This document shows positions 38,219 through 60,603 of a stretch of 64,000 bases of DNA, one piece after another. Positions within the stretch are counted from its first letter, which is position 1, and every line of letters begins with the position of its first letter. A model generated the notes under the pieces. It was not told the origin of the DNA. It was given only the letters and a program-made list of their open reading frames with translations, and searched no databases. The DNA is from Jatrophihabitans sp. (GTDB lineage Bacteria > Actinomycetota > Actinomycetes > Mycobacteriales > Jatrophihabitantaceae): assembly GCA_051000605.1 (NCBI GenBank), contig JBPCOE010000118.1, positions 16,682 through 80,681 on the forward strand. Direction: 5' to 3'. The position numbers and the translations under genes are program-made.

Positions 38219-38246
38219 GTCGAGCTGCCTTCCGTTGTCAGGGTGA

Positions 38247-39700: not shown

Positions 39701-40147
39701 TCAACCAGTGGTGGCCGTTCCGCCGGCCGCCGCGATCTTCTCGCGCGCGGTGTCGGAGAATGCGTCGGCGGTGACGTCGAGCTTGACCCCGAGGTCGCCG
39801 TTGCCGAGCACCTTGACCGGCTCGCCCTTGCGCACGGCGCCGGACCCGACCAGCTCGGCGACGCCGATCGTGCCGCCCTCGGGGAACAGCGACGCGAGCT
39901 GCGCGACGTTGACCACCTGGAAGGCGACCTTGTTGCGGTTTTTGAAACCTCGCAGCTTCGGCAGCCGCATGTGGATCGGAGTGGCGCCACCCTCGAACCC
40001 GACCGGAACCTGGTATCGGGCGCCGGTGCCCTTGGTGCCGCGACCGGCGGTCTTGCCCTTGGAACCCTCACCACGGCCGACGCGGGTCTTCTTGGTGTGC
40101 GATCCCGACGCGGGTTTGAGGTGATGAACCTTCAGATTGGTGCCCAT
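39701..40147 (-). CDS. rplO: 50S ribosomal protein L15
   Basis: [21 protein letters not shown]. Confidence 0.97.
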
Positions 40148-40150
40148 GAT

Positions 40151-40333
40151 TTAGTCGACCTCCTCGACCGTCACGAGGTGCGTGACGGTGTGGACCATGC
40201 CGCGGATCTCCGGGCGGTCCTCCTTGACCACGGTGTCGTGCATGCGCTTGAGCCCGAGGCTGCGCAGCGTGTCCCGCTGGTTCTGCCTGTAACCGATGCC
40301 AGACTTCGTCTGGGTGATCTTGAGACGGCTCAT
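40151..40333 (-). CDS. rpmD: 50S ribosomal protein L30
   Basis: [24 protein letters not shown]. Confidence 0.96.
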
Positions 40334-40335
40334 GA

Positions 40336-41007
40336 TCAGGCGCCCTGTCCGGCCCGCGCCCGCAGCATGCCGGCGGGGGCGACGTCCTCGAGCGGCAGGC
40401 CGCGACGGGCCGCCACTTCTTCGGGACGCACGAGACCCTTCAGAGCCGCGATCGTGGCGTGCACGATGTTGATCGGATTGTCCGAGCCGAGCGACTTCGA
40501 CAGGACGTCGTGGATGCCGGCGCACTCGAGGACGGCACGCACCGGGCCACCGGCGATGACGCCGGTACCGGGGCTGGCCGGCTTCAGCAGCACGACGCCG
40601 GCCGCGGCCTCACCCTGGATCGGGTGCGGGATCGTCTGCTGGATCCGCGGAACCTTGAAGAAGTTCTTCTTCGCCTCCTCGACGCCCTTGGCGATCGCGG
40701 CCGGGACCTCTTTGGCCTTGCCGTAGCCGACGCCGACCGTGCCGTCGCCGTCACCGACGATCACCAGGGCGGTGAAGCTGAAGCGCCGACCACCCTTGAC
40801 GACCTTGGCGACGCGGTTGATGGTGACGACGCGCTCGAGATGCGAATTCTTCTCCGCGGCGTTGCCGCCCCGGCCGCCGTCGCGACGGTCCCGGCGATCG
40901 CCACGACCCGCTGGGCCGCCGGGTCCACCGCTGCCCGGGGCGCCGCTGCCCTGGCCGCCGCCCTGATCGTTGCCGCCCGTTCGGCCTCCCCGTTGCGGTC
41001 CCGGCAT
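40336..41007 (-). CDS. rpsE: 30S ribosomal protein S5
   Basis: [24 protein letters not shown]; Gly-rich N-terminal extension. Confidence 0.98.
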
Positions 41008-41053
41008 CAGATCGTCCCTTCGGTTGCGGTGCACTTCGGAAATGCGATGAACA

Positions 41054-41455
41054 TCAGAATTCCAACCCTGCTTCGCGGGCCGCCTGCGCGAACGCCGCGA
41101 TCCGACCGGTGTAGGTGTTGCCGCCCCGGTCGAAGACAACCTTGGTGACGCCTGCCGACTTTGCCGCCTCGGCGAGCTGCGTGCCGACCTGCTTGGCCTG
41201 CGCTGTCTTGTCATGGCCGTCGTTCAATTTAGCCATTTTGAACGTCGACGCCGACGCGAGCGTTGCGCCTCGACCGTCGTCGACAACCTGAGCGAACAGG
41301 TGCCGCGCCGACCGAGTGACGACCAGGCGAGGACGCTCGGCGTTGCCGACGACCTTCTTGCGCAACCGGAAGTGGCGCCGGGCCTTCGACGCCCGGCGGA
41401 TGGCCGAGGTCCCCGCAGACCGGCGTGCCTGGCGTGCGATCGTGGATGCGCCCAT
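41054..41455 (-). CDS. rplR: 50S ribosomal protein L18
   Basis: [24 protein letters not shown]. Confidence 0.97.
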
Positions 41456-41545
41456 TCAGATCACCTGCTCCTCGCCCGAGCCCGAAACACTTGCTCCGCG
41501 CTGTACTTCCAGTGCTCGCTGACGCTCGCTACGATGCTCACTCAT
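41456..41545 (-). repeat. MIRU-like element J3 (rplF-rplR) carrying mini-[32 protein letters not shown]
   Basis: ATG overlaps the rplF stop (ATGA); TGA directly abuts the rplR ATG; 28/30 identity to J1. Confidence 0.85.
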
Positions 41546-42084
41546 TTCTTCCCTGCCTTACCGGCCTTGCGGCGGATGACCTCACCTTGGTAGCGCACGC
41601 CCTTGCCCTTGTACGGGTCGGGCTTGCGCAGCTTGCGGATCTTGGCGGCGACTTCGCCGACCTGTTGCTTGTCGATGCCCTCGACCACGAAACGGGTGGG
41701 AGCCTCGACGCGGAACGTGATGCCCGCAGGCGCCGGCACGAACACCGGGTGCGAGTATCCGAGCGCAAACTCGAGGTCGCTGCCCCTGGCCGTGACGCGG
41801 TAACCGGTGCCCACGATCTCCAGACGCTTGCTGTAGCCGTCCGTGACGCCGACGACCATGTTGGCGATCAGCGTGCGCGACAAGCCGTGCAGGGACTTGG
41901 ACTCGCGCTCGTCGTCCGGCCGCGAGACGGCGATGAGGCCGTCCTCGGCCTTCGCGACCGTGATGGGCGGCGCGACAGCGTGCGACAGCGTGCCCTTCGG
42001 CCCCTTGACCGTGACCGTCTGACCGTCGATGGCGACGTCGACGTCCGATGGGACGGCCACCGGAAGCCTTCCGATGCGACTCAT
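41542..42084 (-). CDS. rplF: 50S ribosomal protein L6
   Basis: [25 protein letters not shown]. Confidence 0.98.
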
Positions 42085-42135
42085 GATGTTTTCACCTTGC
42101 TCTTCGCGCGATGCTCACTCATAGCTTCGCCTCAC
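42081..42135 (-). repeat. MIRU-like element J4 (rpsH-rplF), short fused form with mini-[16 protein letters not shown] (42081-42122)
   Basis: ATGAGTGAGCATCG joined directly to CGCGAAGAGC; ATGA overlap with rplF. Confidence 0.75.
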
Positions 42136-42536
42136 CAGACGTAGGCGAGAACTTCTCCGCCTACCCCACGCTTGGCTGCCTGCCGGTCGGTCAGCAGTCC
42201 GTTGGACGTCGAGATGATCGCGACGCCGAGGCCACCCAGCACGCGGGGTAGACCGGTCGACTTGGCGTACACACGCAGGCCCGGCTTGGACACGCGCCGC
42301 ACACCCGCGATCGAACGCTCGCGATTCGGGCCGAATTTCAGGTCGATGGTCAGCACCTTGCCGACCTGTCCCTCGGGAGCATCGGCGATCTTGAAGCCGG
42401 CAATGTAGCCCTCCTGCTTCAGGATCTGCGCGATGTGCCCCTTGAGCTTGGAGTGCGGCATCACCACGGTGTCGTGAAAAGCCGTGTTGCCGTTGCGCAG
42501 ACGCGTCAACATGTCCGCGATCGGGTCGGTCATCAT
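42132..42536 (-). CDS. rpsH: 30S ribosomal protein S8
   Basis: [27 protein letters not shown]. Confidence 0.98.
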
Positions 42537-42701
42537 AGGACTTCTTCTCTTCTCTCGCGCCGGTTCCGGTAAAGGCCTGCCGCGAAGCAGTAATGAAACG
42601 AACAGATAATCAGTGGTTGTTCTCTTTAGTTAGGTCGTGCTTCCCAGTTACGAAACCGGGACTTGAGCAACGGCGTTCCCCAAGCAGTGGCGGGAAGGAG
42701 G

Positions 42702-42789
42702 GCTGGGTTCCGATGCGATGTACGGCCGCGTAAAGGCGCGAAGCGCAGCGGCCGAACATCGACGTCGGAATCAAGCCCGAACCCACAGC
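42702..42789. repeat. long imperfect stem-loop directly after rpsZ
   Basis: gctggg...ttccga...cgatgt.cggccgc pairs with gcggccg.acatcg...tcggaa...cccacagc; inner gcgcgaagcgc. Confidence 0.6.
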
Positions 42790-42974
42790 TACCAAGAAGA
42801 CTTAGTAACGCCCGGAAGCTCCCCGGCGTGCGCCATTTCCCGGAAGCAGATCCGGCACAGTCCGAACTTGCGATAGACGGCCTGCGAGCGTCCGCAGCGC
42901 TGGCAGCGGGTGTAACCGCGCACCGCGAACTTCGGCTTGCCGGCGGCCTTCTGCTTCAGAGCGGTCTTGGCCAT
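42789..42974 (-). CDS. rpsZ: 30S ribosomal protein S14 type Z (Zn-binding)
   Basis: RCQRCGR...FGLCRIC; 61 aa. Confidence 0.97.
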
Positions 42975-42975
42975 G

Positions 42976-43563
42976 TCAGCTGTTCTCCTTGAACGGGAAG
43001 CCGAGTGCGCGTAGCAGCGCCCGGCCCTCGTCGTCGTTGGTCGCGGTGGTGACCACGGTGGTGTCCATGCCACGCGGACGGTCGATCGAGTCGGGGTCGA
43101 TCTCGTGGAACATCGACTGCTCGGTCAGGCCGAAGGTGTAGTTGCCGTTGCCGTCGAACTGCCGGTCGGACAGCCCGCGGAAGTCCCGGATGCGCGGCAA
43201 CGCCAGGGAAAGCAGCCGGTCGAGGAACTCCCACATCCGGTCGCCGCGCAGGGTGACCTTCGCGCCGATCGGCATGCCCTCGCGCAACTTGAACTGCGCG
43301 ATCGACTTGCGGGCCTTTTGCACCAGCGGCTTCTGGCCGGTGATGAGGGTGAGGTCGCGCACGGCGCCGTCCATGAGCTTGCTGTCCTTGGCCGCCTGGC
43401 CGACGCCCATGTTGACGACGATCTTCGTCAGGCCGGGGACCTGCATCGGGTTGGCGAAGGAGAACTCCTTCGTCAGCGCCGGGGCGATCTCGTCCCGGTA
43501 GCGGGTCTTGAGCCGCGGGGCCGGGGTTTCGGTGGCGGCCGTGGTCTCGGTTGACGCTGTCAT
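42976..43563 (-). CDS. rplE: 50S ribosomal protein L5
   Basis: [25 protein letters not shown]. Confidence 0.98.
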
Positions 43564-43880
43564 GACAGATCCTTTCCGGAGCGGCGCGAGATACGCACGT
43601 TGCGCCCGGACTGCTCGTCGCGCCGGTAACCGACGCGGGTGGCCTTGCCGTCGGCGCCGATCACCATGACGTTGCTGGCGCTGATCGCGGCTTCGATGTG
43701 CTCGATGCCGCCGGCCTTCGCGCCGCGATTGTCCTGCGAGATCGACGTGTGCTTGGTGACTCGGTTCACGCCTTCGACGACGACCTTGTTCGTGTCGGGG
43801 TTGGCCGCGATGACCTTGCCCTTGACGCCGCGATCCTTGCCGGCGATGACGACGACCTCGTCGCCCTTTTTGACCTTCAT
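43560..43880 (-). CDS. rplX: 50S ribosomal protein L24
   Basis: [27 protein letters not shown]. Confidence 0.97.
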
Positions 43881-43966
43881 CGGACTTCCTCGTTCCGCTC
43901 GTCAGCCCTGTTCAGGCCGACTACCACCTTGCTGTGCCTATAGATCCGCTCGCTGCGCTCACTCAT
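43877..43966 (-). repeat. MIRU-like element J5 (rplN-rplX) carrying mini-[32 protein letters not shown]
   Basis: TGATG overlap with the rplN stop and ATGA overlap with the rplX start; 5' ATGAGTGAGCGCAGCGAGCG module. Confidence 0.8.
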
Positions 43967-44334
43967 CAGAGCACCTCGGGTGCAAGAGAAATGATCTTCA
44001 TGAACCGCTTGTCGCGCAGCTCCCGGCCCACGGGGCCGAAGATGCGAGTCCCGCGGGGCTCGCCGTCGGTCTTGATCAGCACGGCCGCGTTCTCGTCGAA
44101 GCGGATGTAACTGCCGTCCGGACGGCGGCGTTCCTTGACGGTGCGCACGATGACCGCTTTGACGACGTCGCCTTTCTTGACGCCGGCGCCGGGCAGCGCG
44201 TCCTTGACCGTGGCGACGATGATGTCGCCGATCCCGGCGTAGCGACGCCCCGAGCCGCCCATCACCCGGATGCACAAGATTTCCTTGGCGCCGGTGTTGT
44301 CGGCGACCCGAAGTCGCGACTCCTGCTGAATCAC
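43966..44334 (-). CDS. rplN: 50S ribosomal protein L14
   Basis: [24 protein letters not shown]. Confidence 0.98.
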
Positions 44335-44421
44335 TGCTTACTCCTGAGAACTAGGACGCTGGTGGACCTGGTCCCACGCGATGGGGACGGGTTTCGCTCG
44401 TGCGGGTGTTACTTGCCTTAC

Positions 44422-44703
44422 TTACTTCGCCTTCTCTACGACCTCGACCACACGCCAGCGCTTCGTAGCCGACTGCGGGCGGGTCTCCATGATCTGCACG
44501 CGGTCACCGACGCCGACCTGGTCGGTCTCGTCGTGCGCTTTGAGCTTCGTGGTGCGGCGGATGATCTTGCCGTAGCGCGGGTGCTTGACGCGGTCCTCGA
44601 CCTCGACCACGACCGTCTTCTGCATCTTGTCGCTGACGACGAGACCCTGCCGGACCTTGCGGTCCGACGTGCGCTCGGTCGTCGCTTCGGTTGTCTCGCT
44701 CAT
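44422..44703 (-). CDS. rpsQ: 30S ribosomal protein S17
   Basis: [24 protein letters not shown]. Confidence 0.98.
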
Positions 44704-44942
44704 GCGGTAACACCCTCACTGGCTTGTTCCGGGGCCACTGACAGTCCGAGCTCACGCTCACGCAGGATCGTGTAGATCCGTGCGATGTCGTGCTTCACGG
44801 TGCGCAGGCGCCTGTTGTTGTCCAGCTGCCCGGTCGCCATCTGGAAGCGCAGGTTGCACAGCTCTTCCTTCGACTCGCGCAGCCGGGTGGCGAGCTCGTC
44901 ATCGTGCAGCTCGCGCAGTTCAGCGGTCGTGGTGCTGGTCAT
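44700..44942 (-). CDS. rpmC: 50S ribosomal protein L29
   Basis: [16 protein letters not shown]. Confidence 0.96.
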
Positions 44943-45361
44943 CAGAAATCACTCGCTTCCCGCGTGACGATGCGGCACTTCATCGGCAGCTTGTGGATCG
45001 CTCGGGTCAGGGCCTCACGGGCCACGACCTCGTTCGGGAACGAGAGCTCGAACAGCACCCGGCCCGGCTTGACGTTGGCGATCCACCACTCCGGCGAACC
45101 CTTACCGGAACCCATGCGGGTCTCAGCCGGCTTCTTGGTGAGCGGGCGGTCGGGATAGATGTTGATCCAGACCTTGCCGCCGCGGCGGATGCGGCGGTTG
45201 ATCGCGATACGCGCCGACTCGATCTGGCGGTTCGTGACGTACGCCGGCTCCAGAGCCTGGATGCCGTACTCACCGAAGGACACCTGGGTACCGCCGCTGG
45301 CCATGCCGCGGCGGGTCGGGTGGTGCTGCTTGCGGTGCTTCACTCGGCGTGGAATGAGCAT
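44942..45361 (-). CDS. rplP: 50S ribosomal protein L16
   Basis: [26 protein letters not shown]. Confidence 0.98.
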
Positions 45362-45362
45362 G

Positions 45363-46414
<1,052 letters not shown>

Positions 46415-46415
<1 letters not shown>

Positions 46416-46804
46416 TAGCGGCCCCGTCCCTTCTTGCTCGTCGGCCGGTCGATGCTCTCGACCTCGATGGTGATGTGGCTCGTGCGCTTGCGGATCCGGT
46501 ACGCCCGGCCCTGCGCCCGCGGCCGGAACCGCTTCAGGGTGGGGCCCTCGTCGACGAATGCCCGCGAGATGATCAACGTCTCGGGATCGAGGTCGAAGTT
46601 GTGCTCGGCATTGGCGATCGCACTGGCGAGGACCTTCGCCACCGGCTCGGCGGCGGCCTGCGGCTGGAACTTCAGCTGCGCGAGAGCCTCTTGCGCGGGA
46701 CGGTTGCGGATCAGGTCGACGACACGACGTGCCTTCATCGGCGTGACGCGGACGTGCGTCGCCTTCGCGAAGGCACCCCGTACCTGGGTATCTGGCTCAG
46801 TCAT
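46415..46804 (-). CDS. rplV: 50S ribosomal protein L22
   Basis: [27 protein letters not shown]. Confidence 0.98.
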
Positions 46805-46827
46805 TTGTCTCTCCTGCCCTCAACCGC

Positions 46828-47109
<282 letters not shown>

Positions 47110-47120
47110 CGCTAGTTACC

Positions 47121-47954
47121 TCAGCGCTTCTTGTTCGTACGACGACGACGGACGATCAGCTGGTCGCTCGCCTTGCGGTGACGGGTGCGGCCCTCGGGCT
47201 TGCCGTTCGGGTTCACCGGGTGGCGACCGCCGGACGTCTTGCCCTCACCGCCACCGTGCGGGTGGTCGACCGGGTTCATGGCGACACCACGGACGGTCGG
47301 GCGCTTGCCCTTCCAGCGCATGCGGCCGGCCTTGCCCCAGTTGATGTTGCTCTGCTCGGCGTTGCCGACCTCGCCGACGGTCGCTCGGCAGCGGACGTCG
47401 ACGTTGCGGATCTCGCCGGACGGCATCCGCAGTTGGGCGAAGGCGCCCTCCTTGGCCACGAGCTGGACGCTCGCGCCGGCCGACCGGGCGATCTTCGCGC
47501 CGCCTCCGGGACGGAGCTCGATCGCGTGGATCACGGTGCCGACCGGGATGTTGCGCATCGGCAGCGAGTTGCCCGGCTTGATGTCGGCGCCGGGGCCGTT
47601 CTCGATCCGGTCGCCCTGCTTGAGCAGCCGCGGCGCGAGGATGTAGCGCTTCTCGCCGTCGGCGTAGTGCAGCAGCGCGATGCGCGCGGTGCGGTTCGGG
47701 TCGTACTCGATGTGCGCGACCTTGGCCGGCACACCGTCCTTGTCGTGGCGCCGGAAGTCGATCACCCGGTAGGCGCGCTTGTGGCCGCCGCCCTGGTGGC
47801 GGGTCGTGATCCGGCCCGAGTTGTTGCGCCCGCCCTTGTTGTGTAGCGGCTTGACGAGCGCCTTCTCCGGGTGGTCACGGGTGACCTCGGCGAAGTCGGC
47901 GACGGACGACCCACGCCGTCCCGGCGTAGTCGGCTTGTATTTGCGAATAGCCAT
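47121..47954 (-). CDS. rplB: 50S ribosomal protein L2
   Basis: [21 protein letters not shown]. Confidence 0.99.
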
Positions 47955-47962
47955 GAGTCAGG

Positions 47963-48256
47963 TCAGCCAATCTGTCCGAACACGTCGATGCGGTCGCCCG
48001 CACGCAGCGTCACGATCGCGCGCTTGACGCTCTTGCGCGCGCCGAAGCCCGCCCGGGTGCGCTTGCGCTTGCCCTGCCGGTTGAGCGTGTTCACGTCGGT
48101 GACCTTGACGCTGAACACCTTCTCCACCGCGATCTTGATCTGGGTCTTGTTGGCCTGCGGGTGAACCTCGAAGGTGTACTTGTTCTCGTCCAGCAGGCCG
48201 TAGCTCTTCTCCGAGATGACCGGAGCGAGCAGGACGTCACGGGGGTCGTCGAACAT
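47963..48256 (-). CDS. rplW: 50S ribosomal protein L23
   Basis: PVISEKS, NKTQIK, KRAIVTL. Confidence 0.97.
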
Positions 48257-48933
48257 CAGGCGTCCTTCCCTTCGGCATCGGCCGTGGCCGACTTCCCCTT
48301 GACTGGGCCGGCGAGGAACTCCTCGAGCGCAGCTTGGGTGAACACGATGTCGTCACTGATCAGCACGTCGTAGGTGTTGAGCTGTGTCGGCTCGAGCAGG
48401 TGGACGGCCTGGTGGTTGCGCAGGCTCCTCCAGGTGAGTTCGTCCGTGCGCTGAGCGACGACGAGAACGTTCTTCGCCGTGCTCACCTTGGCGAGCGCAA
48501 CCGCTGCGCCCTTCGTCGAAGGCGCATCACCGGTGACCAGCGCCGACACGACGAAGACGCGATCGTTGCGAGCTCGGTCCGAGAGCGCACCACGCAGAGC
48601 GGCGGCCTTCATCTTCTTGGGCGTGCGCTGGTCGTACTTGCGCGGCGTCGGGCCGTGGACGATGCCACCGCCGACGAATTGCGGGGCGCGCGTCGAACCC
48701 TGGCGGGCCCGGCCGGTGCCCTTCTGGCGGTACGGCTTCCTTCCGCCGCCGCGGACCTCGGCACGCGTCTTGGTCGACGCAGTGCCCTGGCGGGCCGCGG
48801 CGAGCTGCGCGACGACGACCTGGTGGATCAGCGAGATGTTGGTCTTCGCGTCGAAGATCTCCGCGGGAAGCTCGACGGTGCCCGTCTGGGCGTCGTCCGA
48901 CGCAGGGTTGCGGATCTCGAGGGACAGCGTCAT
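48256..48933 (-). CDS. rplD: 50S ribosomal protein L4
   Basis: [21 protein letters not shown]. Confidence 0.98.
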
Positions 48934-48935
48934 GG

Positions 48936-49601
48936 TCAGACCCCCTTCGACTTGTTGGCGGACCGGACGAACAGCAGCGAGCCCTTCGGCCCGGGGACGG
49001 CGCCCTTGATCAGCAGAAGGCCGTTCTCGACGTCCACCTTGTGGATCACGAGCCCGGTAGTCGTCGCCTTGACGTGGCCCATGCGCCCGGCCATCCGCAG
49101 CCCCTTGAACACGCGACCCGGCGTGGCGCAGGCGCCGATCGAGCCGGGTTTGCGGTGGTTGCGGTGCGAGCCGTGCGAGGACGAGACGCCGTGGAAGCCG
49201 TGGCGCTTCATAACCCCCGCGGTGCCCTTGCCCTTGGTGGTGCCGCTCACGTCGACGCGCGCACCGTCTTGAAAGGTGCTGTCGACGGTGATCTCCGCGC
49301 CGAGGGCGTAGTCCGCGATCGCGTCGGTGCGCAGCTCGACCAGGTGCCGGCGAGGCGTGACGTCCGCAGCCTTGAAGTGACCGGCGACGGGCTTGGTCAC
49401 CTTGCGCGGGTCGATCTGGCCGTACGCGAGTTGGACGGCGGTGTAGCCGTCCTTCTCTTGGGTTCGGATCTGGGTCACGACGCACGGCCCGGCCTTGACG
49501 ACGGTCACCGGAACCATCCGGTTGTTCTCGTCGAAGACCTGGGTCATGCCGAGCTTCTCGCCGAGAATGCCCTGGCGCCCAGTTCGAGTTTCGTCTGCCA
49601 T
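48936..49601 (-). CDS. rplC: 50S ribosomal protein L3
   Basis: [29 protein letters not shown]. Confidence 0.98.
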
Positions 49602-49612
49602 GTCTGTCTGCC

Positions 49613-49918
49613 CTACTGAATGTTGACGTCGACCGACGCCGGCAGGTCGATACGCATCAGCGCGTCCACCGTCTTCGGGGTCGGGTCGAGGATGTCGATG
49701 AGCCGCTTGTGGGTGCGCATCTCGAAGTGCTCGCGGCTGTCCTTGTACTTGTGCGGCGAGCGGATGACGCAGTAGATGTTCTTCTCCGTCGGCAACGGGA
49801 CGGGCCCGACGACGCGAGCGCCGGTCCGGGTGACCGTCTCGACGATCTTGCGTGCACTGGCGTCGATGGCCTCGTGGTCATAGGCCTTGAGCCGGATGCG
49901 GATCTTCTGTCCCGCCAT
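49613..49918 (-). CDS. rpsJ: 30S ribosomal protein S10
   Basis: [25 protein letters not shown]. Confidence 0.99.
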
Positions 49919-50086
49919 GGTGGCTGACTCACCTTCACTGTTCTGAGGTCTACTGCAGGTTCGAGCCCGCCCGCCGGGCGCCGCGGGAGCGGCTGATGTT
50001 TCGGTGGCGAAGGGCACCCGTTCCGGGTGGAAACCGGCCTGCGTCCAGATGACGGCCGGTCCACCCGCAACGGGGTGGAGCAGGTA

Positions 50087-51286
50087 CTACTCGACGATCT
50101 TGGTGACGCGACCCGCACCCACGGTGCGGCCACCCTCACGGATGGCGAAGCGCAGGCCGTCCTCCATTGCGATCGGCTGGATAAGCTCGACCGACATCTC
50201 TGTGTTGTCGCCCGGCATGACCATCTCGGTGCCCTCTGGGAGGGTGACGACACCGGTCACGTCGGTGGTGCGGAAGTAGAACTGCGGGCGGTAGTTGTTG
50301 AAGAACGGCGTGTGCCGGCCACCCTCGTCCTTGGACAGGATGTAGACGTTCGCCTCGAACTTGGTGTGCGGAGTCGTCGTGCCCGGCTTGATGACGACCT
50401 GGCCGCGCTCGACGTCCTCACGCTTGATGCCACGAAGCAGCAGCCCGACGTTCTCCCCGGCCTGACCCTCGTCGAGCAGCTTGCGGAACATCTCGATGCC
50501 GGTGACCGTGGTCGTCTGCTTGGCCTCGTGGATGCCGATGATGTCGACGGTCTCGTTGACCTTCAGGATGCCCCGCTCGATACGGCCGGTGACGACCGTG
50601 CCGCGACCGGTGATCGTGAAGACGTCCTCGACGGGCATCAGGAACGGCTTCTCGGTCTCGCGCTCGGGCTGCGGGATCGACTCGTCGATGGCGCTCATGA
50701 GCTCCATGATCTTCTCGCCCCACTCGGCGTCGCCCTCGAGCGCCTTGAGTGCGGAGACCTTGACGATCGGAGCGTCGTCGCCGTCGAACTCGTACTGGGT
50801 CAGCAGCTCGCGGACCTCGAGCTCGACCAGCTCCAGGATCTCGTCGTCGACATCCGTGCCGTCGCACGTGTTCAGCGCAACCACGATGTACGGGACGCCG
50901 ACCTGGCGGGCCAGGAGCACGTGCTCCTTGGTCTGCGGCATCGGGCCGTCGGTGCCGGACACGACCAGGATCGCGCCGTCCATCTGGGCCGCACCGGTGA
51001 TCATGTTCTTGATGTAGTCGGCGTGCCCGGGGCAGTCGACGTGCGCATAGTGGCGCTTCTCGGTCTGGTACTCGATGTGCGCGATCGAAATGGTGATACC
51101 GCGCTGGCGCTCCTCGGGAGCCTTGTCGATCTGATCGAACGCCGAGGTATCCGGGTTCAGCGCCGGGTACTTGTCATGCAGCACGCGCGAGATCGCCGCC
51201 GTCAGCGTCGTCTTGCCATGGTCGATGTGACCGATCGTGCCGATGTTGACGTGCGGCTTGGTCCGCTCGAACTTCGCCTTCGCCAC
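50087..51286 (-). CDS. tuf: elongation factor Tu (atypical G4 motif NTCD)
   Basis: [30 protein letters not shown]. Confidence 0.98.
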
Positions 51287-51363
51287 TGTGGATCCCTTTC
51301 CCTCTTTGGGTAGTACCGGTCTTCTAGGTCCGGCTGTGTTGACTGTTGTCTTGAAACTCTTGG

Positions 51364-53460
51364 TTACTCGCCGTTCACCTTCGCGATGATCTCCTTGGCC
51401 ACGTTCCCCGGGACCTCGGCGTACTTCTCGAACTGCATCGAGTAGCTGGCGCGGCCCTGCGTCTTGCTGCGCAGGTCCCCGACATAGCCGAACATCTCCG
51501 ACAGCGGCACCAGCGCCTTGACGACGCGGTTGCCACCCCGCTCCTCCATGGCCTGGATCTGGCCACGGCGCGAGTTGAGGTCGCCGATGACGTCGCCCAT
51601 GTTCTCCTCGGGCGTGGTCACCTCGACTGCCATCATCGGCTCCAGCAGAGCCGGGTCGGCCTTCCGCGCGGCGTTCTTGAACACGATCGAACCCGCGATC
51701 TTGAACGCCATTTCGGAGGAGTCGACATCGTGGTAGCCACCGTCGAGCAGTGTCATCCGAATGCCGACCAGCGGGTAGCCGGCGAGGATGCCGTACTGCA
51801 TGGCCTCCTGCGCACCGGCGTCCACCGAAGGGATGAACTCCCTGGGGATACGCCCACCGGAGACGGCGTTGACGAACTCGTAGCTCGGTCCGTCCGACGT
51901 CATCTCCATCGGCTCCAGCTTGATCTGCACCTTCGCGTACTGGCCGGACCCACCCGTCTGCTTCTTGTGGGTGTAGTCCTCCTTCTCCACGACGCGACGG
52001 ATCGTCTCGCGGTAGGCCACCTGCGGCTTGCCCACGTTGGCCTCGACCTCGAACTCGCGACGCATCCGGTCGACGAGGATCTCCAGGTGGAGCTCGCCCA
52101 TCCCCTTGATGATGGTCTGGCCGGTCTCCTCGTCCTGCTGGACCTGGAAGGTCGGGTCTTCCTCGGCGAGCTTCTGGATCGCGACGCCCAGCTTCTCCTG
52201 GTCGCCCTTCGTCTTCGGCTCGATCGCGACGTTGATGACCGGGTCCGGGAAGGTCATGGACTCCAGCACGATCGGCTTCTGCGGGTCCGACAGCGTGTCA
52301 CCGGTGGTGGTCTGCTTCAGCCCCGCAACGGCGATGATGTCGCCGGCGCCGGCCCGCGGCAGCTCCTCACGCTTGTTCGCGTGCATCTGGTAGATCTTGC
52401 CGATCCGCTCCTTGCGGTCCTTCGTCGAGTTGAGAACCTGCGCACCGTTCTCGACGACGCCGGAGTAGATCCGCACGTAGGTGAGCTTGCCGAGGAACTT
52501 GTCGGTGGCGATCTTGAAGGCCAGCGCGGCCAGCGGCTCCGACTCGTCGGGGTGCCGCTCAGCGGGTGTCTCGCCGTCCTGCAGAAGACCGGTCACCTCG
52601 CCGACATCCAGCGGCGACGGCAGGTAGTCCACGACCGCATCGAGCAGCGGCTGCACGCCCTTGTTCTTGAATGCGGAGCCGGTGAGCACCGGGTTGATCA
52701 GGTCGGCCAGGGTGGCCCGGCGGATCGCGGCCTTGAGCGTCTCGACCGACAGCTCCTCGCCGTCCAGGTACGCCTCGGCGATCGCATCGTCCACGTCTGC
52801 CAGCGTCTCGATCAGCTTCTCGCGCCACTCCGCGGCCTGATCGGCAAGCTCCGCCGGGATCTCCTCGATGGTGTAGTCCTCACCCATCTCGGTCTCTCCG
52901 CGCCAGACCAGCGCGCGCATCCCGAGCAGGTCGACGACGCCGATGAAGCTGGACTCGTTGCCGATCGGGATCTGCAGCACCAGCGGGGTGGCGTTGAGGC
53001 GGTCGATCATCATCTGCACACAGCGGAAGAAGTCCGCGCCGGTGCGGTCCAGCTTGTTGACGAAGCACATCCGCGGGACGGAATACTTGTCTGCCTGCCG
53101 CCACACCGTCTCGGTCTGCGGCTCGACACCGGCGACACCGTCATAGACGGCAACCGCACCGTCGAGCACGCGCAGGTTGCGCTCCACCTCGACGGTGAAG
53201 TCGACGTGCCCAGGAGTGTCGATCAGGTTGATGGTGTGGTCTTTCCACTCACACTTGGTGGCAGCCGACGTGATCGTGATGCCACGTTCCTGCTCCTGCT
53301 CCATCCAGTCCATGACGGCAGCACCGTCGTGCACCTCACCGATCTTGTACGTGATGCCGGTGTAGAAGAGGATGCGCTCGGTGGTCGTGGTTTTACCCGC
53401 GTCGATATGCGCCATGATCCCGATGTTCCGGGTCTTGGACAGGCGTGCGGTTACAGACAT
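51364..53460 (-). CDS. fusA: elongation factor G
   Basis: [29 protein letters not shown]. Confidence 0.99.
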
Positions 53461-53507
53461 CTTCGCTTCCGTCTCGGGTTCTAGTTCTGTCTTTGTCTGG
53501 TGGGTAT

Positions 53508-53978
53508 CTACCAGCGGTAGTGGGCGAAGGCCTTGTTCGACTCCGCCATCTTGTGCATGTCCTCGCGACGCTTGACCGCGGCGCCCAGACCATTGCTGGC
53601 ATCCAGCAGCTCGTTCATCAGCCGCTCTGTCATCGTCTTCTCACGACGCTGCCTGGAGAAGCCGACCAGCCAGCGCAGCGCCAGCGTGGTGCTGCGGCTC
53701 GGGCGCACGTCGACCGGCACCTGGTAGGTGGCGCCACCGACGCGACGGCTCTTCACCTCGATGGCAGGCTTGACGTTCTCCAGCGCGCGCTTCAGCGTGA
53801 TCACCGGGTCGGCGCCGGACTTCTCGCGGCAACCTTCGAGGGCGCCGTAGACGATGCGCTCGGCTACCGAACGCTTACCGGCCATCAGCACCTTGTTGAC
53901 CAGCTGGGTCACCAGCGGTGAGGCATAGACCGGGTCGATGACTAGCGGACGACGCGGGGGCGGTCCCTTGCGGGGCAT
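53508..53978 (-). CDS. rpsG: 30S ribosomal protein S7
   Basis: [28 protein letters not shown]. Confidence 0.99.
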
Positions 53979-54352
53979 TAGCGCTTCTCCTTCTTCGCGC
54001 CGTACAGGCTGCGAGCCTGCTTGCGGCCGCGGACGCCCTGGGTGTCCAAGGTGCCGCGGATGATCTTGTAGCGGACGCCGGGGAGGTCCTTCACCCGACC
54101 ACCACGCACGAGCACGATCGAGTGCTCCTGAAGGTTGTGACCGACGCCCGGGATGTAGGCGGTGACCTCGATACCGCCGGTCAGCTTCACTCGGGCCACC
54201 TTGCGCAGCGCGGAGTTCGGCTTCTTCGGGGTCGTCGTGTAGACGCGAGTGCAGACTCCGCGGCGCTGGGGCGAACCCTTCAGCGCAGGGGTCTTCGTCT
54301 TCGCGATCTTGTCCTGCCGGCCCTTGCGGACCAGCTGCTGGATCGTAGGCAT
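53978..54352 (-). CDS. rpsL: 30S ribosomal protein S12
   Basis: [30 protein letters not shown]. Confidence 0.99.
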
Positions 54353-54726
54353 GCGGCCTGCAATCTCCCTTGCTGTCTCGTACCTGTCTCGCCGACCGGT
54401 CCCGGCTGGGATCGGCCTGTTCCTGCGTCGCTCTGTACGTGTGCGGTGCCGTAGTGCTGCGTTCAATTCCCACGTACTTGCTGCACTCCGTGCCCGTCTC
54501 CGGTCCACGCGGTCGGGTGTGTCGCACCCATTTCGCAGGGCAGGCAGGAGGCCAACCCCCTGGTCTGCACGGTGTTCTCGTCCACCGCTGCGGTACGTAG
54601 CACCTGAGCCGAAATCGGCCTTCTGGCTCCACGCCACCCGCGAGCACGAGTCGATACCCAGGTTTCCCCAGGCACAGGTGACCACAGTACCCGCGCAGCG
54701 CGGCCGGGGCAAAACTGTGCTGTGCT

Positions 54727-54935
54727 CATGATCGCCTCATCGATTCCTCGCGGAACCCTCGCTCCGCATCGGGGCCCACTCTCGATCGATACCTCGCTTC
54801 GCTCGGCCGCAAGCTCGCTGCGCTCGCGCGGGCGATCTGCTCTTCGCGCGAGCGCTCATCGCGTGGGGGTCACCCGACCGCCGTCACCCTGACCTGTCCG
54901 CGCGAGCGCTCATCGCGTGGGGGTCACCCGACCGC
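54727..54935 (-). repeat. cluster of MIRU-like modules upstream of rpsL (J6), including a 37-bp direct repeat with 54-bp period
   Basis: 54845-54881 equals 54899-54935; 54839-54861 equals 18156-18178; gctcgctgcgctc shared with J5. Confidence 0.85.
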
Positions 54936-54964
54936 GGCTAGTTGGTGGTTTCTCGGGCCCGCCC

Positions 54965-55054
54965 CTTGTGCCGAGAGGGAGCTTTCCGTCGCGACACGCC
55001 GAGGATTCTGACTGGAAGCTCCCGCTCGGCCGCGAAAACCTCCCGCTCGACCGG
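54965..55054 (-). repeat. family-2 interspersed repeat, left copy
   Basis: Reverse complement matches 63714-63803 at 75/90 positions without gaps (hand count). Confidence 0.85.
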
Positions 55055-55227
55055 TGGGATCGCCGAACGTGCCCGTTACTCGCCTCGACTGTGCCCGGTT
55101 GGGTCGGGGTGTTGCGCAGGCCACACCTCAGGGTCATGGTCGCTCATGTGCGCACCTGTGAAGTTCCTGTCTCCCGAAGCCGGCCCGGTTCGGGCAGGCA
55201 GCCGCTGGACTCCCGGGGGATTGGCCG

Positions 55228-56202
55228 ATGATCGTCACGATCACCGCGAATCCCTCGCTGGATCGGACATATCAGGTCGACAGTCTTCAGCCCGGTGCGG
55301 TGAACCGGGCCTCCCTCGACACCGTCGAGGCCAGCGGCAAGGGAGTCAACGTGTCCCGGGTGCTGACGGCGGCCGGGGTGGACACCCTCGCGGTGACGAT
55401 GGCCGGTGGGGCGGAAGGCGAGCAGCTGGTGCGGCTGTTGGTCGCCGGCGCGGTGCCACACCGCGCGCACCGGGCGACTGCGACAACCCGCACCAACGTC
55501 ACCGTGCTCGGCCCCACCGGCGTCACCACGAAGGTGAACGCAGCCGGCGAACCCCCGAGCGCCGCTGATCTGGATGCCCTTCTCGACCTGACCGCCGGGT
55601 GCGTCGCACCTGGCGACTGGCTGGTGATCGCCGGGACCGAGCCGCCCGGGCCGTACCGACTGACCGAGCGAGCCATTGCAGTCGCGCACGCCGCCGGCGC
55701 CAGGGTCGCAGTCGACACCTCCGGCTCCCCGCTGGCGGCGGCGCACACTGCCGGCGCGGATCTGCTCGCCCCCAACAACGGCGAGCTCGCCGATCTTCTC
55801 GGCGAGCGCGCCTCGGCCTTGCCGGATCCGGTCGACCGGGCGATCGCCGACGCTCGCACCCTCATCGAGGGTGCTGCGCTGCCTGCGCTGTTGGTCAGCC
55901 TGGGTGAGCACGGTGCGATCTACGCTGCCGGCCAGGCCGCATGGCATGCCGTTGCGCCGTCGGTCGTGCCGGTCAACACGGCCGGAGCCGGCGACGCGCT
56001 CCTGGCCGGCTTTCTCGGCACCGGCGGCGACATCCCCGCGCGGCTGGCCCGTGCCGTCGCGTGGGGCACCGCGGCCTGTCAACGTCCCGAAACGGCCGGC
56101 GACGTCTCGTCGGCTGACCCCACCACAGTCAGGGTGCGCACCGTGACCGACCCGGGCAAGACCGATCTCGACCCGTCCAGCGACCAACAGGAGGCTTCGT
56201 GA
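55228..56202 (+). CDS. 1-phosphofructokinase/LacC family (PfkB) hexose-phosphate kinase
   Basis: TITANPSLD, GKGVNV, PNNGEL, NTAGAGD. Confidence 0.9.
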   Translation: MIVTITANPSLDRTYQVDSLQPGAVNRASLDTVEASGKGVNVSRVLTAAGVDTLAVTMAGGAEGEQLVRLLVAGAVPHRAHRATATTRTNVTVLGPTGVTTKVNAAGEPPSAADLDALLDLTAGCVAPGDWLVIAGTEPPGPYRLTERAIAVAHAAGARVAVDTSGSPLAAAHTAGADLLAPNNGELADLLGERASALPDPVDRAIADARTLIEGAALPALLVSLGEHGAIYAAGQAAWHAVAPSVVPVNTAGAGDALLAGFLGTGGDIPARLARAVAWGTAACQRPETAGDVSSADPTTVRVRTVTDPGKTDLDPSSDQQEAS

Positions 56203-57578
56203 AGCGGCTACGCAAGACATCCAGGGCCGTCGTCCTCACCGTCTGCGCCGGGCTGGCAGCCGCCAGTCTGAGCGCCTGCGGTGGCTTCGGTGGCACCGGC
56301 GGCGGCAAGGATTCCATCAACGTGCTGATGGTGAACAACCCGCAGATGATCGACATCCAGAAGCTCACCAGCCAGTACTTCACCAAGAAGACCGGCATCA
56401 AGGTGAACTACACGGTGCTGCCGGAGAACGACGTCCGGGACAAGATCAGCCAGGAGCTGTCCAGCCAGGCCGGCATCTACGACGTCTCGACGATCTCGAA
56501 CTACGAGGTGCCGTTCTATGCCAAGGCCGGCTGGCTCACCCCGCTCGACTCGTACACGAAGAACGCCTCGCGGGGATTCGACCCGAGCCAGCCGTTCGAC
56601 CAGAGCGACATCTTCCCAGGCATGACCAAATCACTGTCAGCCGCGGACGGCAAGCTCTACGCCGAGCCGTTCTACGGGGAGTCGTCCTTCCTGATGTACC
56701 GCAAGGACGTATTCGCCGCTAAGGGTCTGACGATGCCGTCACACCCCACCTGGCAGCAGGTCGCCGACCTTGCCGCAAAGGTCGACAACGCGCAGCCCGG
56801 TATGCGCGGCATCTGTCTGCGTGGACAGGTCGGCTGGGGCCAGGTCTTCGCACCGCTGACCACCGTCGTGAACACCTTCGGCGGTACGTGGTACGACAAG
56901 AACTGGAACGCCCAGGTCGACGCGCAGCCGTTCAAGGACGCGGTGAACTTCTACGTCGACCTGGTCCGCAAGCATGGCGAGGCAGGCGCACCCCAAGCCG
57001 GCTTCACCGAGTGCTTGACCGCACTGGAGACCGGCAAGACCGCGATGTGGTACGACGCCACCTCCGCGGCCGGCTCCCTGGAGAGCGACGCCTCCCCCAA
57101 CAAGGGCAAGTTCGGTTACGTTGCTGCGCCGGTGGTCAAGACCAAGACGTCCGGCTGGTTGTACGCCTGGTCGTGGGCGATCGAGCACGCCAGCAAGAAG
57201 AAGGACGACGCCTGGAAGTTCATCTCGTGGGCGTCAAGCAAGCAGTACGAGCAGTTGGTTGGCGAGAAGCTCGGCTGGGCCAGCGTCCCGGCCGGCAAGC
57301 GGCAGTCCACCTACGACAACCCGGACTACCTGAAGGCGTCTGCGGCCTTCGCCGAGCCGACCAAGGAAGCGATCCTCGCAGCTGACCCGGCCAATCCGGG
57401 CGTGCAGGCCCGACCGGTGCCGGGCATCCAGTTCATGGACTTCCCCGAATTCGCCGCGATGGCAACAACCGTCTCGCAATACATCAGCACCGCGATAGCC
57501 GGCCAGATGAGTGTCGATACGGCATTGAAGAAAGGCCAGAAAGTCGCGGCCCGGATAGGAAAGGACTACAAGAAATGA
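56199..57578 (+). CDS. sugar/polyol ABC transporter substrate-binding lipoprotein (SmoE-like)
   Basis: Lipobox LSAC; PFYGESS, MWYDAT, GWLYAW motifs. Confidence 0.9.
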   Translation: MKRLRKTSRAVVLTVCAGLAAASLSACGGFGGTGGGKDSINVLMVNNPQMIDIQKLTSQYFTKKTGIKVNYTVLPENDVRDKISQELSSQAGIYDVSTISNYEVPFYAKAGWLTPLDSYTKNASRGFDPSQPFDQSDIFPGMTKSLSAADGKLYAEPFYGESSFLMYRKDVFAAKGLTMPSHPTWQQVADLAAKVDNAQPGMRGICLRGQVGWGQVFAPLTTVVNTFGGTWYDKNWNAQVDAQPFKDAVNFYVDLVRKHGEAGAPQAGFTECLTALETGKTAMWYDATSAAGSLESDASPNKGKFGYVAAPVVKTKTSGWLYAWSWAIEHASKKKDDAWKFISWASSKQYEQLVGEKLGWASVPAGKRQSTYDNPDYLKASAAFAEPTKEAILAADPANPGVQARPVPGIQFMDFPEFAAMATTVSQYISTAIAGQMSVDTALKKGQKVAARIGKDYKK

Positions 57579-58540
57579 CCGCCACTCTTGATAGGCCGCC
57601 GTCCGCTGCTGCCAAGCCGGGGCCGGGATCGCAGTCGGCTGCGCTGCGGCGATCGACCAACTGGGCGCGCCGCGCACCCTTGATGCCGGCGCTGATCTTC
57701 ATGATCATCGTGACTCAGTTGCCGTTCATCGCCACCCTGGTCATCTCGTTCCTGCGGTGGAACGCGCTGCGCCCCGAGCTGGGCAAGAAGTTCACCGGGT
57801 TCGGCAACTACTCCAGCGTGCTGAGCGACCCGGACTTCCGCGCGTCGATCGTCTTCACCGTGGTACTCACCGTCACGGTGGTATTGGTGAGTCTGTTCCT
57901 CGGCCTGCTCCTGGCGCTGCTTCTCGACCGGCAGTTCCGCGGTCGCGGTCTGGTGCGGACGATGCTCATCGCACCGTTCCTGGTCGTGCCGATCGCCAGC
58001 GCATTGCTCTGGAAGCACGCGCTGTTGAACCCGCTTTACGGCGCGTTCAACGGGACGCTCTCGGTGATCTGGAAATGGTTCGGCTCGAGCAACCCGCCGC
58101 AGCCGGACTGGTTGACCGACCACCCGAAGCTGGCCGTGGAGATGTCGCTGATCTGGCAGTGGACGCCGTTCATGATGCTGATCCTGCTGGCCGGGCTGCA
58201 GAGCCGGCCGGCGGATGCAGTGGAGGCAGCCAACATGGACGGCGCCTCGACCTGGCAGGTCTTCCGGTTCCTCACCTTGCCGCACCTGCGGCAGTACCTG
58301 GAACTCGGTGGACTGCTCGGCTCGATCTACGTGGTGCAGAACTTCGACGCGGTCTTCACCATCACATCCGGCTCGCAGGGCACGTCCAACCTGCCGTACA
58401 GCATCTACAACATCTTCTTCACCGCGCACGACTACGGCCGTGCTTCAGCAGCCGGCGTCATCGTGGTGATCGGATCGATCGTCATCGCCACCTTCGCGTT
58501 GCGCGTGGTGTCCTCGCTGTTCGAGGAGGGCAACAAGTGA
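57575..58540 (+). CDS. carbohydrate ABC transporter permease
   Basis: Multi-TM; EAANMDGAS.W..F EAA loop. Confidence 0.92.
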   Translation: MTATLDRPPSAAAKPGPGSQSAALRRSTNWARRAPLMPALIFMIIVTQLPFIATLVISFLRWNALRPELGKKFTGFGNYSSVLSDPDFRASIVFTVVLTVTVVLVSLFLGLLLALLLDRQFRGRGLVRTMLIAPFLVVPIASALLWKHALLNPLYGAFNGTLSVIWKWFGSSNPPQPDWLTDHPKLAVEMSLIWQWTPFMMLILLAGLQSRPADAVEAANMDGASTWQVFRFLTLPHLRQYLELGGLLGSIYVVQNFDAVFTITSGSQGTSNLPYSIYNIFFTAHDYGRASAAGVIVVIGSIVIATFALRVVSSLFEEGNK

Positions 58541-58580
58541 TCATTTCACCCCAGCCCTCCGCCATCGTTGGGAGTTCACG

Positions 58581-59474
58581 ATGACCGCCACCACCGCTGC
58601 TGCACACCAGTCCGAGGTCGCCCTCGATTCGACGCTCGGCCGGGACGTGCCGGGCAAACGCCGGCGCGAAGGAAACCTCTGGGGGCTACTGGCCTGGATC
58701 ATCGGCCTGCTGTTCGTCTCGCCGGTGCTCTGGATGATCTGGCTGTCCTTCCACTCCGAGGCAGACGCGTCGGCGAACCCGCCGAAATTCACCGCACCAT
58801 TGACCGTCGAGGGCTACCGCGACTTCTTCGGTGGCGGACAGAGCCCCTGGCCGTCGCTGCTGAACTCGCTCACCGCGAGCGTGGTGTCGACGTTGGTGGT
58901 GCTGCTGCTGGCGATCCCAGCCGCGTATGCGCTGTCGATCCGGCCGGTCAAGAGGTGGACCGACGTGATGTTCTTCTTCCTGTCCACGAAGATGTTGCCG
59001 ATCGTCGCCGGCCTGCTGCCGGTGTACCTGATCTCGCAGAAGCTGCACATGCTCGACAACATCTTCCTGCTGGTCATCCTCTACGCGTCGATGAACCTGC
59101 CGATCGCGGTCTGGATGATGCGCTCGTTCCTGTCCGAGGTGCCGGTCGAGATGCTCGAGGCCGCCGCGATCGACGGAGCCAGGTTGCCGACGATCCTGCG
59201 TTCGATCATCGCACCGGTCGCCATGCCGGGTATCGCGGCGACGTCGCTGATCTGCTTCATCTTCAGTTGGAACGAGTTGCTCTTCGCGAAAGTGCTCACC
59301 GCCGTGGTCGCGCAGACGTCGCCGGTGTTCCTGACCGGATTCATCACCAGTCAGGGGCTGTTCCTGGCCAAGGTGTGCGCAGCTGCAACGATCATCTCGC
59401 TGCCCGTACTCGCCGCCGGGTTCGCGGCGCAGGACAAACTGGTGCAGGGCCTGTCGCTCGGCGCCGTCAAATAA
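58581..59474 (+). CDS. carbohydrate ABC transporter permease
   Basis: EAAAIDGA loop, FIFSWNE, GLSLGAVK. Confidence 0.92.
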   Translation: MTATTAAAHQSEVALDSTLGRDVPGKRRREGNLWGLLAWIIGLLFVSPVLWMIWLSFHSEADASANPPKFTAPLTVEGYRDFFGGGQSPWPSLLNSLTASVVSTLVVLLLAIPAAYALSIRPVKRWTDVMFFFLSTKMLPIVAGLLPVYLISQKLHMLDNIFLLVILYASMNLPIAVWMMRSFLSEVPVEMLEAAAIDGARLPTILRSIIAPVAMPGIAATSLICFIFSWNELLFAKVLTAVVAQTSPVFLTGFITSQGLFLAKVCAAATIISLPVLAAGFAAQDKLVQGLSLGAVK

Positions 59475-59613
59475 CGCAAGATGATCGCGCTACTGGAATC
59501 GGTGGGGTGCTCAACCGTCGCGCGGCCGCGGACCGTCGCGGGTCACTCTGGCCCGGTCACCCAACACTGTACCTAACGGGACGTCGCCCAGCCGGGCGCG
59601 GAGGGACTGACTC

Positions 59614-60603
59614 ATGAAAGCTGCCATCATCACGGGTGTCGGCCAGGCCGAGGTCACCACGGTCGACGACCCGAAGCCGGGGCCGCGGGATGTGATCGTG
59701 GATGTCGCCGCGTGCGGCATCTGCGGTACCGACCTGCACATCCTGCAGGGCGAGTTCGCGCCATCCCTGCCGATCGTGCCGGGCCACGAGTTCGCCGGCA
59801 CCATCGTGGAATTGGGCAAGGAGGTGGACACGCTGTCCGTGGGCGACCGCGTCGCCGTGGACCCGTCCCTGTTCTGCTTCGAGTGTTACTACTGCCGGCT
59901 GGGCAAGAACAACCTTTGCGAGAACTGGAACGCGATCGGCGTCACCCAACCCGGCGGCAGCGCGGAGTTCGCCAAGGCGCCAGCGGCGAACTGTGTGCGG
60001 CTACCCGAGCACGTCCGGCTCGAGGACGCGGCGCTGATCGAGCCGTTGTCCTGCGCGGTGCGCGGCTACGACGTGCTCAAGTCGCAGCTGGCCAACAGCG
60101 TGCTCATCTATGGCTCCGGGACGATGGGCCTGATGATGCTGCAGTTGGCCAAGCGGGTCGGCGCGACGAGTGTCGACGTGGTCGACCTGAACACCGATCG
60201 GCTGGAGACCGCAAAGCAGCTCGGGGTCACCGCCGCCGCGCAGTCCGCCGACGAGCTGGACCGGCCTCGGCTCTGGGATCTGGTGGTGGACGCGACCGGT
60301 AACGCAAAGGCGATTCAGGACGGGCTCAGTCGGGTCGGGAAGGGCGGCACATTCCTGCAGTTCGGCGTCTCTGACTACGCCGCCCGCGCCGAGATCGAGC
60401 CGTACAAGATCTACAACCAGGAGATCACCATCACCGGATCGATGGCGGTGCTGAACAGTTACGAACGGGCCGCGGCGCTGTTTGCCGACGGCGTCATCGA
60501 CCCCGACGTGTTCATCTCCGATCGGCTGCCTTTGGACCAGTACACCGATGCTCTCGACCGGTTCGCGAAGGGCATCGGCCGCAAGATCCAAGTACTGCCT
60601 TGA
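59614..60603 (+). CDS. Zn-dependent polyol dehydrogenase (sorbitol dehydrogenase-like)
   Basis: CGICGTDLH, GHEFAG, CFECYYC..C, EPLSC. Confidence 0.92.
   Translation: MKAAIITGVGQAEVTTVDDPKPGPRDVIVDVAACGICGTDLHILQGEFAPSLPIVPGHEFAGTIVELGKEVDTLSVGDRVAVDPSLFCFECYYCRLGKNNLCENWNAIGVTQPGGSAEFAKAPAANCVRLPEHVRLEDAALIEPLSCAVRGYDVLKSQLANSVLIYGSGTMGLMMLQLAKRVGATSVDVVDLNTDRLETAKQLGVTAAAQSADELDRPRLWDLVVDATGNAKAIQDGLSRVGKGGTFLQFGVSDYAARAEIEPYKIYNQEITITGSMAVLNSYERAAALFADGVIDPDVFISDRLPLDQYTDALDRFAKGIGRKIQVLP

Follow-up and report, generated by a model that had tools for sequence, protein, structure and literature searches.

In GTPases of other families, a weakened G4 motif is known from Ras K117 variants and from the NxxD motif of FeoB, where it goes along with lower nucleotide affinity and rapid spontaneous release of GDP. 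In E. coli EF-Tu, substitutions of the G4 lysine K136 reportedly weaken nucleotide binding strongly, and some of these mutants are said to be dominant-negative via EF-Ts. A mutagenesis study of this lysine is on record (Hwang, Sanchez & Miller 1989, J Biol Chem 264:8304; pmid 2498311). Lys136 makes base-specific contacts together with N135 and D138 (PMC4286738), and it is displaced by EF-Ts during nucleotide exchange (PMC9529903). The EF-Tu gene (tuf) described here encodes threonine in this position.

The EF-Tu gene and its G4 motif

The window, i. e. the whole stretch of 64,000 nucleotides that was analysed, contains tuf in its str operon position between fusA and rpsJ, and all three genes are on the same strand (Table 1). 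The product is recognised by the EF-Tu models TIGR00485 and PRK00049, which cover residues 2-399 with 721-727 bits versus cut-offs of 449-522 bits (522 bits for TIGR00485). The G1 (GHIDHGKT, residue 19), G3 (DCPG, residue 84) and G5 (SAL, residue 178) motifs are all canonical. The G4 motif departs from the family pattern (N/T)(K/Q)xD with lysine as the second residue: it reads NTCD, and from 50872 to 50837 on the minus strand the frame runs through the two codon groups listed in Table 1 and on through GTC GAC GAC GAG ATC. Every other EF-Tu that we read (~120 genes) has lysine at this position. A sequence-only reading of this DNA had drawn attention to NTCD in place of NKxD, to VVSGTDG upstream (residues 108-114) and to the NKLD kept by the neighbouring EF-G. 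It had also remarked that the change from K to T needs just one base (AAG to ACG) and might be an error. In all of this it was right.

As a comparison set we used 23 full-length EF-Tu sequences from the same genus and order. The set includes an unpublished genome, G030 (locus L028), on which the result does not depend. All 23 have VVAATDG or VVSATDG together with NK(A/S)DMVDDEE. From the columns that are otherwise invariant in these relatives, the window EF-Tu departs only at 111, 140, 143, 144, 146 (an insertion) and 148; it departs at residue 200 as well, in a column conserved in 21 of the 23. The NTCD observation holds and is far from chance.

Table 1. Positions of the features discussed in the text (G047, nearest relative; G001 and G019, genomes of the same genus as the bin).
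Feature	Position in window	Strand	Remarks
tuf ORF	50087..51286	minus	399 aa; TIGR00485, 721 bits; probably an in-silico hybrid of the tuf genes of two organisms
G4 motif codons AAC ACG TGC GAC (N139 T140 C141 D142)	50861..50872	minus	T140 corresponds to K136 of E. coli
Codons GGC ACG GAT (G143 T144 D145)	50852..50860	minus	S-P-D in the natural subtype
S110 G111 codons (VVSGTDG)	50954..50959	minus	lineage trait, common to G047 and Antricoccaceae
Private bases (50857 T, 50860 C, 50868 G)	50857..50868	plus	nearest public contig has G, T, T (CCG Pro, AGC Ser, AAG Lys)
Left arm: rpsJ (49613-49918, minus), S10 operon and beyond	1..50150		bin's own genus; ~81% identity to G019/G001 vs ~75% to G047; rpsJ and rplD agree
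Transition zone, genus-like to G047-like	50150..50900		join or recombination point; triplet sites
Right arm: 5' part of tuf, fusA (51364-53460, minus), rpsG (53511-53978), rpsL (53981-54352), sugar kinase/ABC transporter block (55228-63157)	50900..64000		G047-like in sequence and gene order; reaches the contig end

A natural loop subtype

The sequence-only reading had taken the altered residues around G4 as a sign of real local remodelling. A degenerate DNA pattern for L-N-x-x-D-x-x-D-V-D-D-E, i. e. for the loop that is longer by one residue, was scanned over the GTDB species genomes and metagenome records and led to ~95 EF-Tu genes, all with lysine at G4. The form NKCDSPDVDDE(I/M) was found in MAGs of Prevotellaceae, Muribaculaceae and Porphyromonadaceae, in several Corynebacterium and in soil actinobacterial MAGs; NKTDMPD occurs in Saccharibacteria and Paceibacterota, and NKCDSDD in one Acetatifactor MAG. 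In a word search with residues 104-154, the best 20 matches pair VVSGTDG with NKCDSPDVDDEI (NKADSPD in Epidermidibacterium). Among these 20 are the cultured Antricoccus suffuscus, Cumulibacter soli, C. manganitolerans and Epidermidibacterium keratini as well as eight soil proteins of 399 aa, and K, S and P are present in 20/20.

The nearest relative is G047 (OY969789.1), a complete 3.85-Mb MAG chromosome, whose EF-Tu aligns with that of the window without gaps (95.5% identical amino acids, 93% identical nucleotides). It is a subtype gene and the sole tuf of G047. Because this sole tuf belongs to a complete genome, the subtype can be taken as a working EF-Tu. The combination of VVSGTDG, the cysteine and the longer linker is a natural working EF-Tu subtype that is already present in databases.

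With this subtype the window EF-Tu has S110 and G111, C141 and the linker longer by one residue (D145 V D D E I) in common. It deviates at T140, G143 and T144, where all of the ~95 subtype loci and the top 20 database matches have K and S-P, M-P or S-D. Expressed as changes relative to the subtype these are K140T (AAG>ACG), S143G (AGC>GGC) and P144T (CCG>ACG), and only these are private to the window. The claim of remodelling therefore stands for VVSGTDG, the cysteine and the longer linker, which are natural but not private to this gene. That the neighbouring changes vouch for the loss of lysine does not follow, since every natural carrier of the subtype (~95 loci and the top matches) keeps it. 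The suggested search for loop variants elsewhere gave no match to the 12-residue loop of the window in the GTDB genomes and 241 M metagenome records; the longer loops that were found all have lysine.

The longer linker (loci L042-L225, e. g. L050:3945-5135, L058, L068, L100 and L049; homologous site in the window 50837-50872) is spread over Bacteroidales, Corynebacterium, Antricoccaceae, soil Actinomycetota, Patescibacteria and an Acetatifactor MAG. It occurs together with VVSGTDG in the soil actinobacterial and Antricoccaceae group. The S-P-D of the loop looks like a helix N-cap. At 90% identity the window EF-Tu is placed in a protein cluster (P0002/P0003) whose representative is an EF-G and whose 157 members are EF-G and EF-Tu mixed; a mixed cluster of this kind can conceal variants from searches of representatives only. 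An actinobacterial-type EF-Tu labelled Methylomirabilota (P0023) is probably mis-binned.

A change of parentage within tuf

The window was compared over its whole length with the regions syntenic to it in G047 and two same-genus genomes (G019, G001). From 1 to 50,000 its identity is ~81% to the genus vs ~75% to G047. From 50,000 to 54,500, i. e. across the 5' part of tuf, fusA, rpsG and rpsL, it is 89-94% to G047 vs 83-87% to the genus. The encoded proteins give the same picture: EF-G is 97% identical to that of G047 and 85-88% to those of the genus, RpsL and RpsG are 100% and 98.7% identical to their G047 counterparts. The sugar block at 55-63 kb has its syntenic counterpart in G047, with proteins that are 93% and 81% identical, and in the genus genomes tested it is missing or represented by distant relatives only. 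Proteins encoded on two other contigs of the bin resemble those of the genus and not those of G047. The window EF-G shows no private departures in 248 conserved columns, and the right arm is otherwise clean. In a search by EF-G for the right-arm organism elsewhere, the exact protein was not on record; after G047 (97%) the next EF-G proteins are 91-92% identical.

The sugar-catabolism block beside rpsL (54965-63803) comprises a 1-phosphofructokinase-like kinase, ABC permeases, two dehydrogenases and a xylulokinase-like kinase. Its presence in that position is common to G047 only; the same-genus genomes carry rpoC-side DNA there.

Symmetric three-sequence sites are genus-like up to ~50,200, mixed up to ~50,850 and G047-like from ~50,900 on. 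Maximum-likelihood breakpoints range from 50,144 to 50,879 according to the reference, with three of six references giving 50,863-50,879 and 2-lnL limits of 50,090-50,959, and as the alignment at the indel is unreliable these values locate the break only to ~50.1-50.95 kb. The window base at 50,836 is already of the G047 type.

A second set of str genes is present in the same bin. The end of contig C89 (50,976-53,162, outside the window) carries rpsL, rpsG and fusA up to its codon 381. The 6.5 kb before these genes are 88.6% identical to G001 and have the genus's own gene order. There are thus two copies of rpsG in this bin vs one each in the relatives and G047; no other part of the window has a second copy in the bin. 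The switch of parentage inside the ORF and the duplicated rpsL-rpsG-fusA both speak against tuf being the gene of one organism with no join of two. In the simplest reading, the native operon would run from C89 into the left arm of the window contig, and the right arm would come from a co-occurring G047-like organism. The contig is very probably a chimera that arose in assembly, with the join inside tuf.

A switch of this kind could also have arisen in vivo, if natural recombination, with its crossover inside tuf, had brought a G047-type segment (from the 5' part of tuf through fusA, rpsG and rpsL to the sugar block) into the bin's organism. The contig would then be genuine and its tuf a natural mosaic; the three private bases are a separate matter. 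tuf is a classic substrate of recombination, and a repeat family of 23-mers is present in both arms, although it does not discriminate, being found in G047 and the genus as well. We regard this course of events as very unlikely, because it requires two rpsL-rpsG-fusA loci in one genome, where the relatives have one. Moreover, the right arm reaches the contig end, C89 breaks off inside fusA at the very point from which the native operon would proceed toward the left arm, and the CheckM-type contamination of the bin is 4%. We infer that the switch is an assembly join and not a product of natural recombination.

The 23-mer GCTCTTCGCGCGAGCGCTCATCG, found at 18156-18178 and 54839-54861 of the window, belongs to a dispersed family that forms part of repeat modules, often in tandem at a spacing of ~143 nt. 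Counted with up to 2 mismatches, there are 15 copies in the bin (G000), 1-36 in three same-genus genomes (G001, G006, G019) and 45 in G047. As a marker for both arms belonging to one genome it is uninformative, since bin, genus and G047 have it alike.

Since parentage changes within tuf and the bin has rpsL-rpsG-fusA a second time, the earlier view of the gene as the sole tuf in one operon with its neighbours has to be given up. The alternative offered at that time, a second tuf that supplies the canonical function, found no counterpart either: the search of the bin for a second canonical tuf gave only paralogous GTPases. A tuf3-type extra copy that is drug-resistant, as in producer self-resistance, would stand beside a canonical tuf, often within a biosynthetic cluster; this does not fit a gene that lies in the str operon and is the single tuf in the bin, as it is in G047. 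The search for tsf that had been proposed found the gene present and intact in the bin. Because it is on a contig of the other organism, neither the intact tsf nor the status of the gene as the only tuf says anything about the NTCD protein and its dependence on EF-Ts.

Three private bases in the G4 loop

The closest known sequence to this part of tuf is a 108-nt contig from the sediment metagenome run X5 (record 22, depth 11.5), which covers 50802-50909. It is identical to the window at 105 of 108 positions with no gaps, reads NKCDSPD, and its mismatches are exactly the three private bases of Table 1. G047 differs from the window at 10 sites over the same interval. Relative to the X5 contig the window thus has no synonymous and three non-synonymous changes, all within 12 nt and in the protein's most conserved motif.

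We found the three bases nowhere else in the GTDB genomes, the 241 M metagenome records and 5.8 G protein clusters. A degenerate pattern encoding the 12-residue loop of the window had no match in the GTDB genomes and none in the 241 M metagenome records, 17- or 21-mers spanning the private bases were absent from ~220 fetched loci, and the exact EF-Tu protein is present only on its own contig of 80,855 bp. The sequencing runs that were searched contain at most 46% of the tuf words in any one run, and none of them is the source sample; four runs compared at 50600-51100 gave no support for T140, G143 or T144. A piece from X21 (depth 3.6) that agrees at 50857 and 50860 was discounted, as it is the short side of a spurious joint.

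Several sources of the three bases were considered and rejected. Neither admixed tuf reads of other species nor a blend of the two parent sequences accounts for them, since canonical and SPD-type tuf genes have other bases at all three positions. For gene conversion from a donor elsewhere in the genome, only chance 11-15-mers were found. A template switch at a quasi-palindrome is a weak idea only: the fold has z = -0.9 versus shuffled sequences, and the NKCDSPD form has -0.65.

The bases could be real DNA and nevertheless no more than a rare or non-viable allele. A single multi-base event, such as an error-prone polymerase patch or a template switch, would have struck one cell line or left its trace in relic DNA, and the allele, neither fixed nor functional, would have been assembled at low coverage from a G047-like population. 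In favour of such an event, the three changes are clustered within 12 nt, while the X5 contig shows no synonymous difference. Moreover, a 5-bp inverted repeat, CGTGC/GCACG, which is missing from the NKCDSPD form, is created by two of the changes. The hairpin is, however, no stabler than shuffled sequence, and a strongly deleterious variant of an essential single-copy gene should not reach an abundance at which it is assembled. We consider this origin highly improbable.

The opposite possibility is that a G047-like soil actinobacterium uses an EF-Tu with NTCD-GTD as its working and probably only EF-Tu. By analogy with other GTPases, Asp142 would still select guanine, while the loss of the lysine packing would weaken binding of GDP and GTP and speed their spontaneous release. 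Such a protein might depend less on EF-Ts or tend to hold it, and G143 and T144 could re-cap helix D in compensation. The private changes keep the frame, use preferred codons and introduce residues of mild chemistry (like Ser, Thr is able to cap a helix); the other G motifs are all intact, and the host subtype already tolerates change in the G4 loop. It is unlikely that base-calling errors arose independently at three clustered sites, and the k-mers that span them must presumably derive from reads. Ras K117 variants and FeoB-type NxxD GTPases work with fast exchange, and GTP at millimolar cellular concentration could load a weakened site.

Against a functional NTCD protein stands the lysine itself, which none of the ~120 EF-Tu genes read and none of the best database matches lack. 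In the SPD loop, S and P are likewise retained across phyla, but neither is present here. All three differences from the nearest sequence are non-synonymous and none is synonymous; searches for intermediates between NKCDSPD and NTCDGTD, and for a compensating change elsewhere in the G domain in the comparisons with relatives and G047, found neither. The site adjoins the chimeric join, and the greatly reduced nucleotide binding reported for E. coli K136 substitutions, with the dominant-negative effect of some of them through EF-Ts, points in the same direction. On balance we hold a working NTCD EF-Tu to be unlikely. If it were true, this would be the first case in nature of an EF-Tu that lacks the G4 lysine; its nucleotide exchange would be intrinsically fast, and its relationship to EF-Ts would be altered. 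It would overturn one of the most invariant positions of GTPases and provide a natural experiment on EF-Ts dependence.

Our preferred explanation, to which we assign a probability of about 0.6, is that NTCD is an artefact or a non-representative sequence on a chimeric contig. The window tuf would then be a standard subtype EF-Tu gene that was assembled onto such a contig. Its 3' end and everything to the left would stem from the bin's own organism, of a Jatrophihabitantaceae-type genus, and its G domain and everything to the right from a co-occurring relative of G047. The assembler may have bridged the tuf paths of the two species through a conserved stretch. Some assemblers admit low-count k-mers to connect paths. 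If the join is at 50799-50836, the private bases would be within one read length of it, and a bridge of low coverage, or of a single read, could have brought its errors, or the sequence of a rare molecule, into the contig there. The three bases would most likely be an artefact at the level of reads or assembly, or come from a non-representative molecule, and we infer that they are not the true sequence of the organism. For the organism of the right arm this predicts lysine at G4 and ordinary GTP/GDP cycling with EF-Ts. There is no support for reading the gene as a sole EF-Tu that lacks the G4 lysine.

Several points weigh against an artefact, among them the retained frame, the preferred codons and the mild residues noted above, and the coarse location of the breakpoint. 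Since graph assemblers do not invent bases, the sample probably contained a molecule or read in which all three changes were present. Furthermore, the fusA of C89 is itself odd by its sequence, so that the supposedly native locus would not be clean either. After ~300 nt it has 62-73% nucleotide and ~60% amino acid identity to every other EF-G compared, which may reflect either a further mis-join or a divergent EF-G and illustrates the tangled state of this region in the assembly.

The locus has a cautionary value. Metagenome assemblers cross between species in conserved genes such as tuf, and striking substitutions beside such joins need read-level proof.

Comparison with known systems

Among the ~120 EF-Tu genes read and the best database matches we found no natural EF-Tu in which the G4 lysine is replaced. 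The E. coli Lys136 mutants have the same lysine replaced, but they are laboratory mutants with impaired binding. Ras K117 variants and the NxxD motif of FeoB provide a model of the behaviour to be expected from an EF-Tu with NTxD; they belong to different families, and the likeness is one of analogy only.

The closest natural counterparts are the EF-Tu proteins of G047 and of the Antricoccaceae. The EF-Tu of G047, i. e. of the uncultured Actinomycetota MFD01213.bin.c.4, has 399 aa like that of the window, and its gene has the matching fusA-tuf position in the operon. The EF-Tu proteins of the Antricoccaceae isolates have 398 aa, with VVSGTDG, Cys at the x of NKxD (Ala in Epidermidibacterium) and the longer linker ending in DVDDEI. 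G047 and the Antricoccaceae have N-K-C-D-S-P-D, whereas the window has N-T-C-D-G-T-D.

Outside this group, Corynebacterium (C. otitidis, C. argentoratense, C. mendelii), Prevotellaceae/Muribaculaceae, Saccharibacteria/Paceibacterota and Acetatifactor, i. e. members of at least four phyla, have a linker from G4 to helix D that is longer like that of the window. These proteins keep VVAATDG and lysine, in contrast to VVSGTDG and threonine in the window, and are 58-80% identical overall. Because of these low overall identities, their sequences suggest that the loop arose or was kept apart from the lineage of the window, by repeated origin or retention rather than by transfer. As a by-product, the analysis thus brings out a recurrent NKCD-SPD-VDDE subtype of EF-Tu, which occurs in at least four phyla and is the sole EF-Tu in the one complete genome that was checked (G047).
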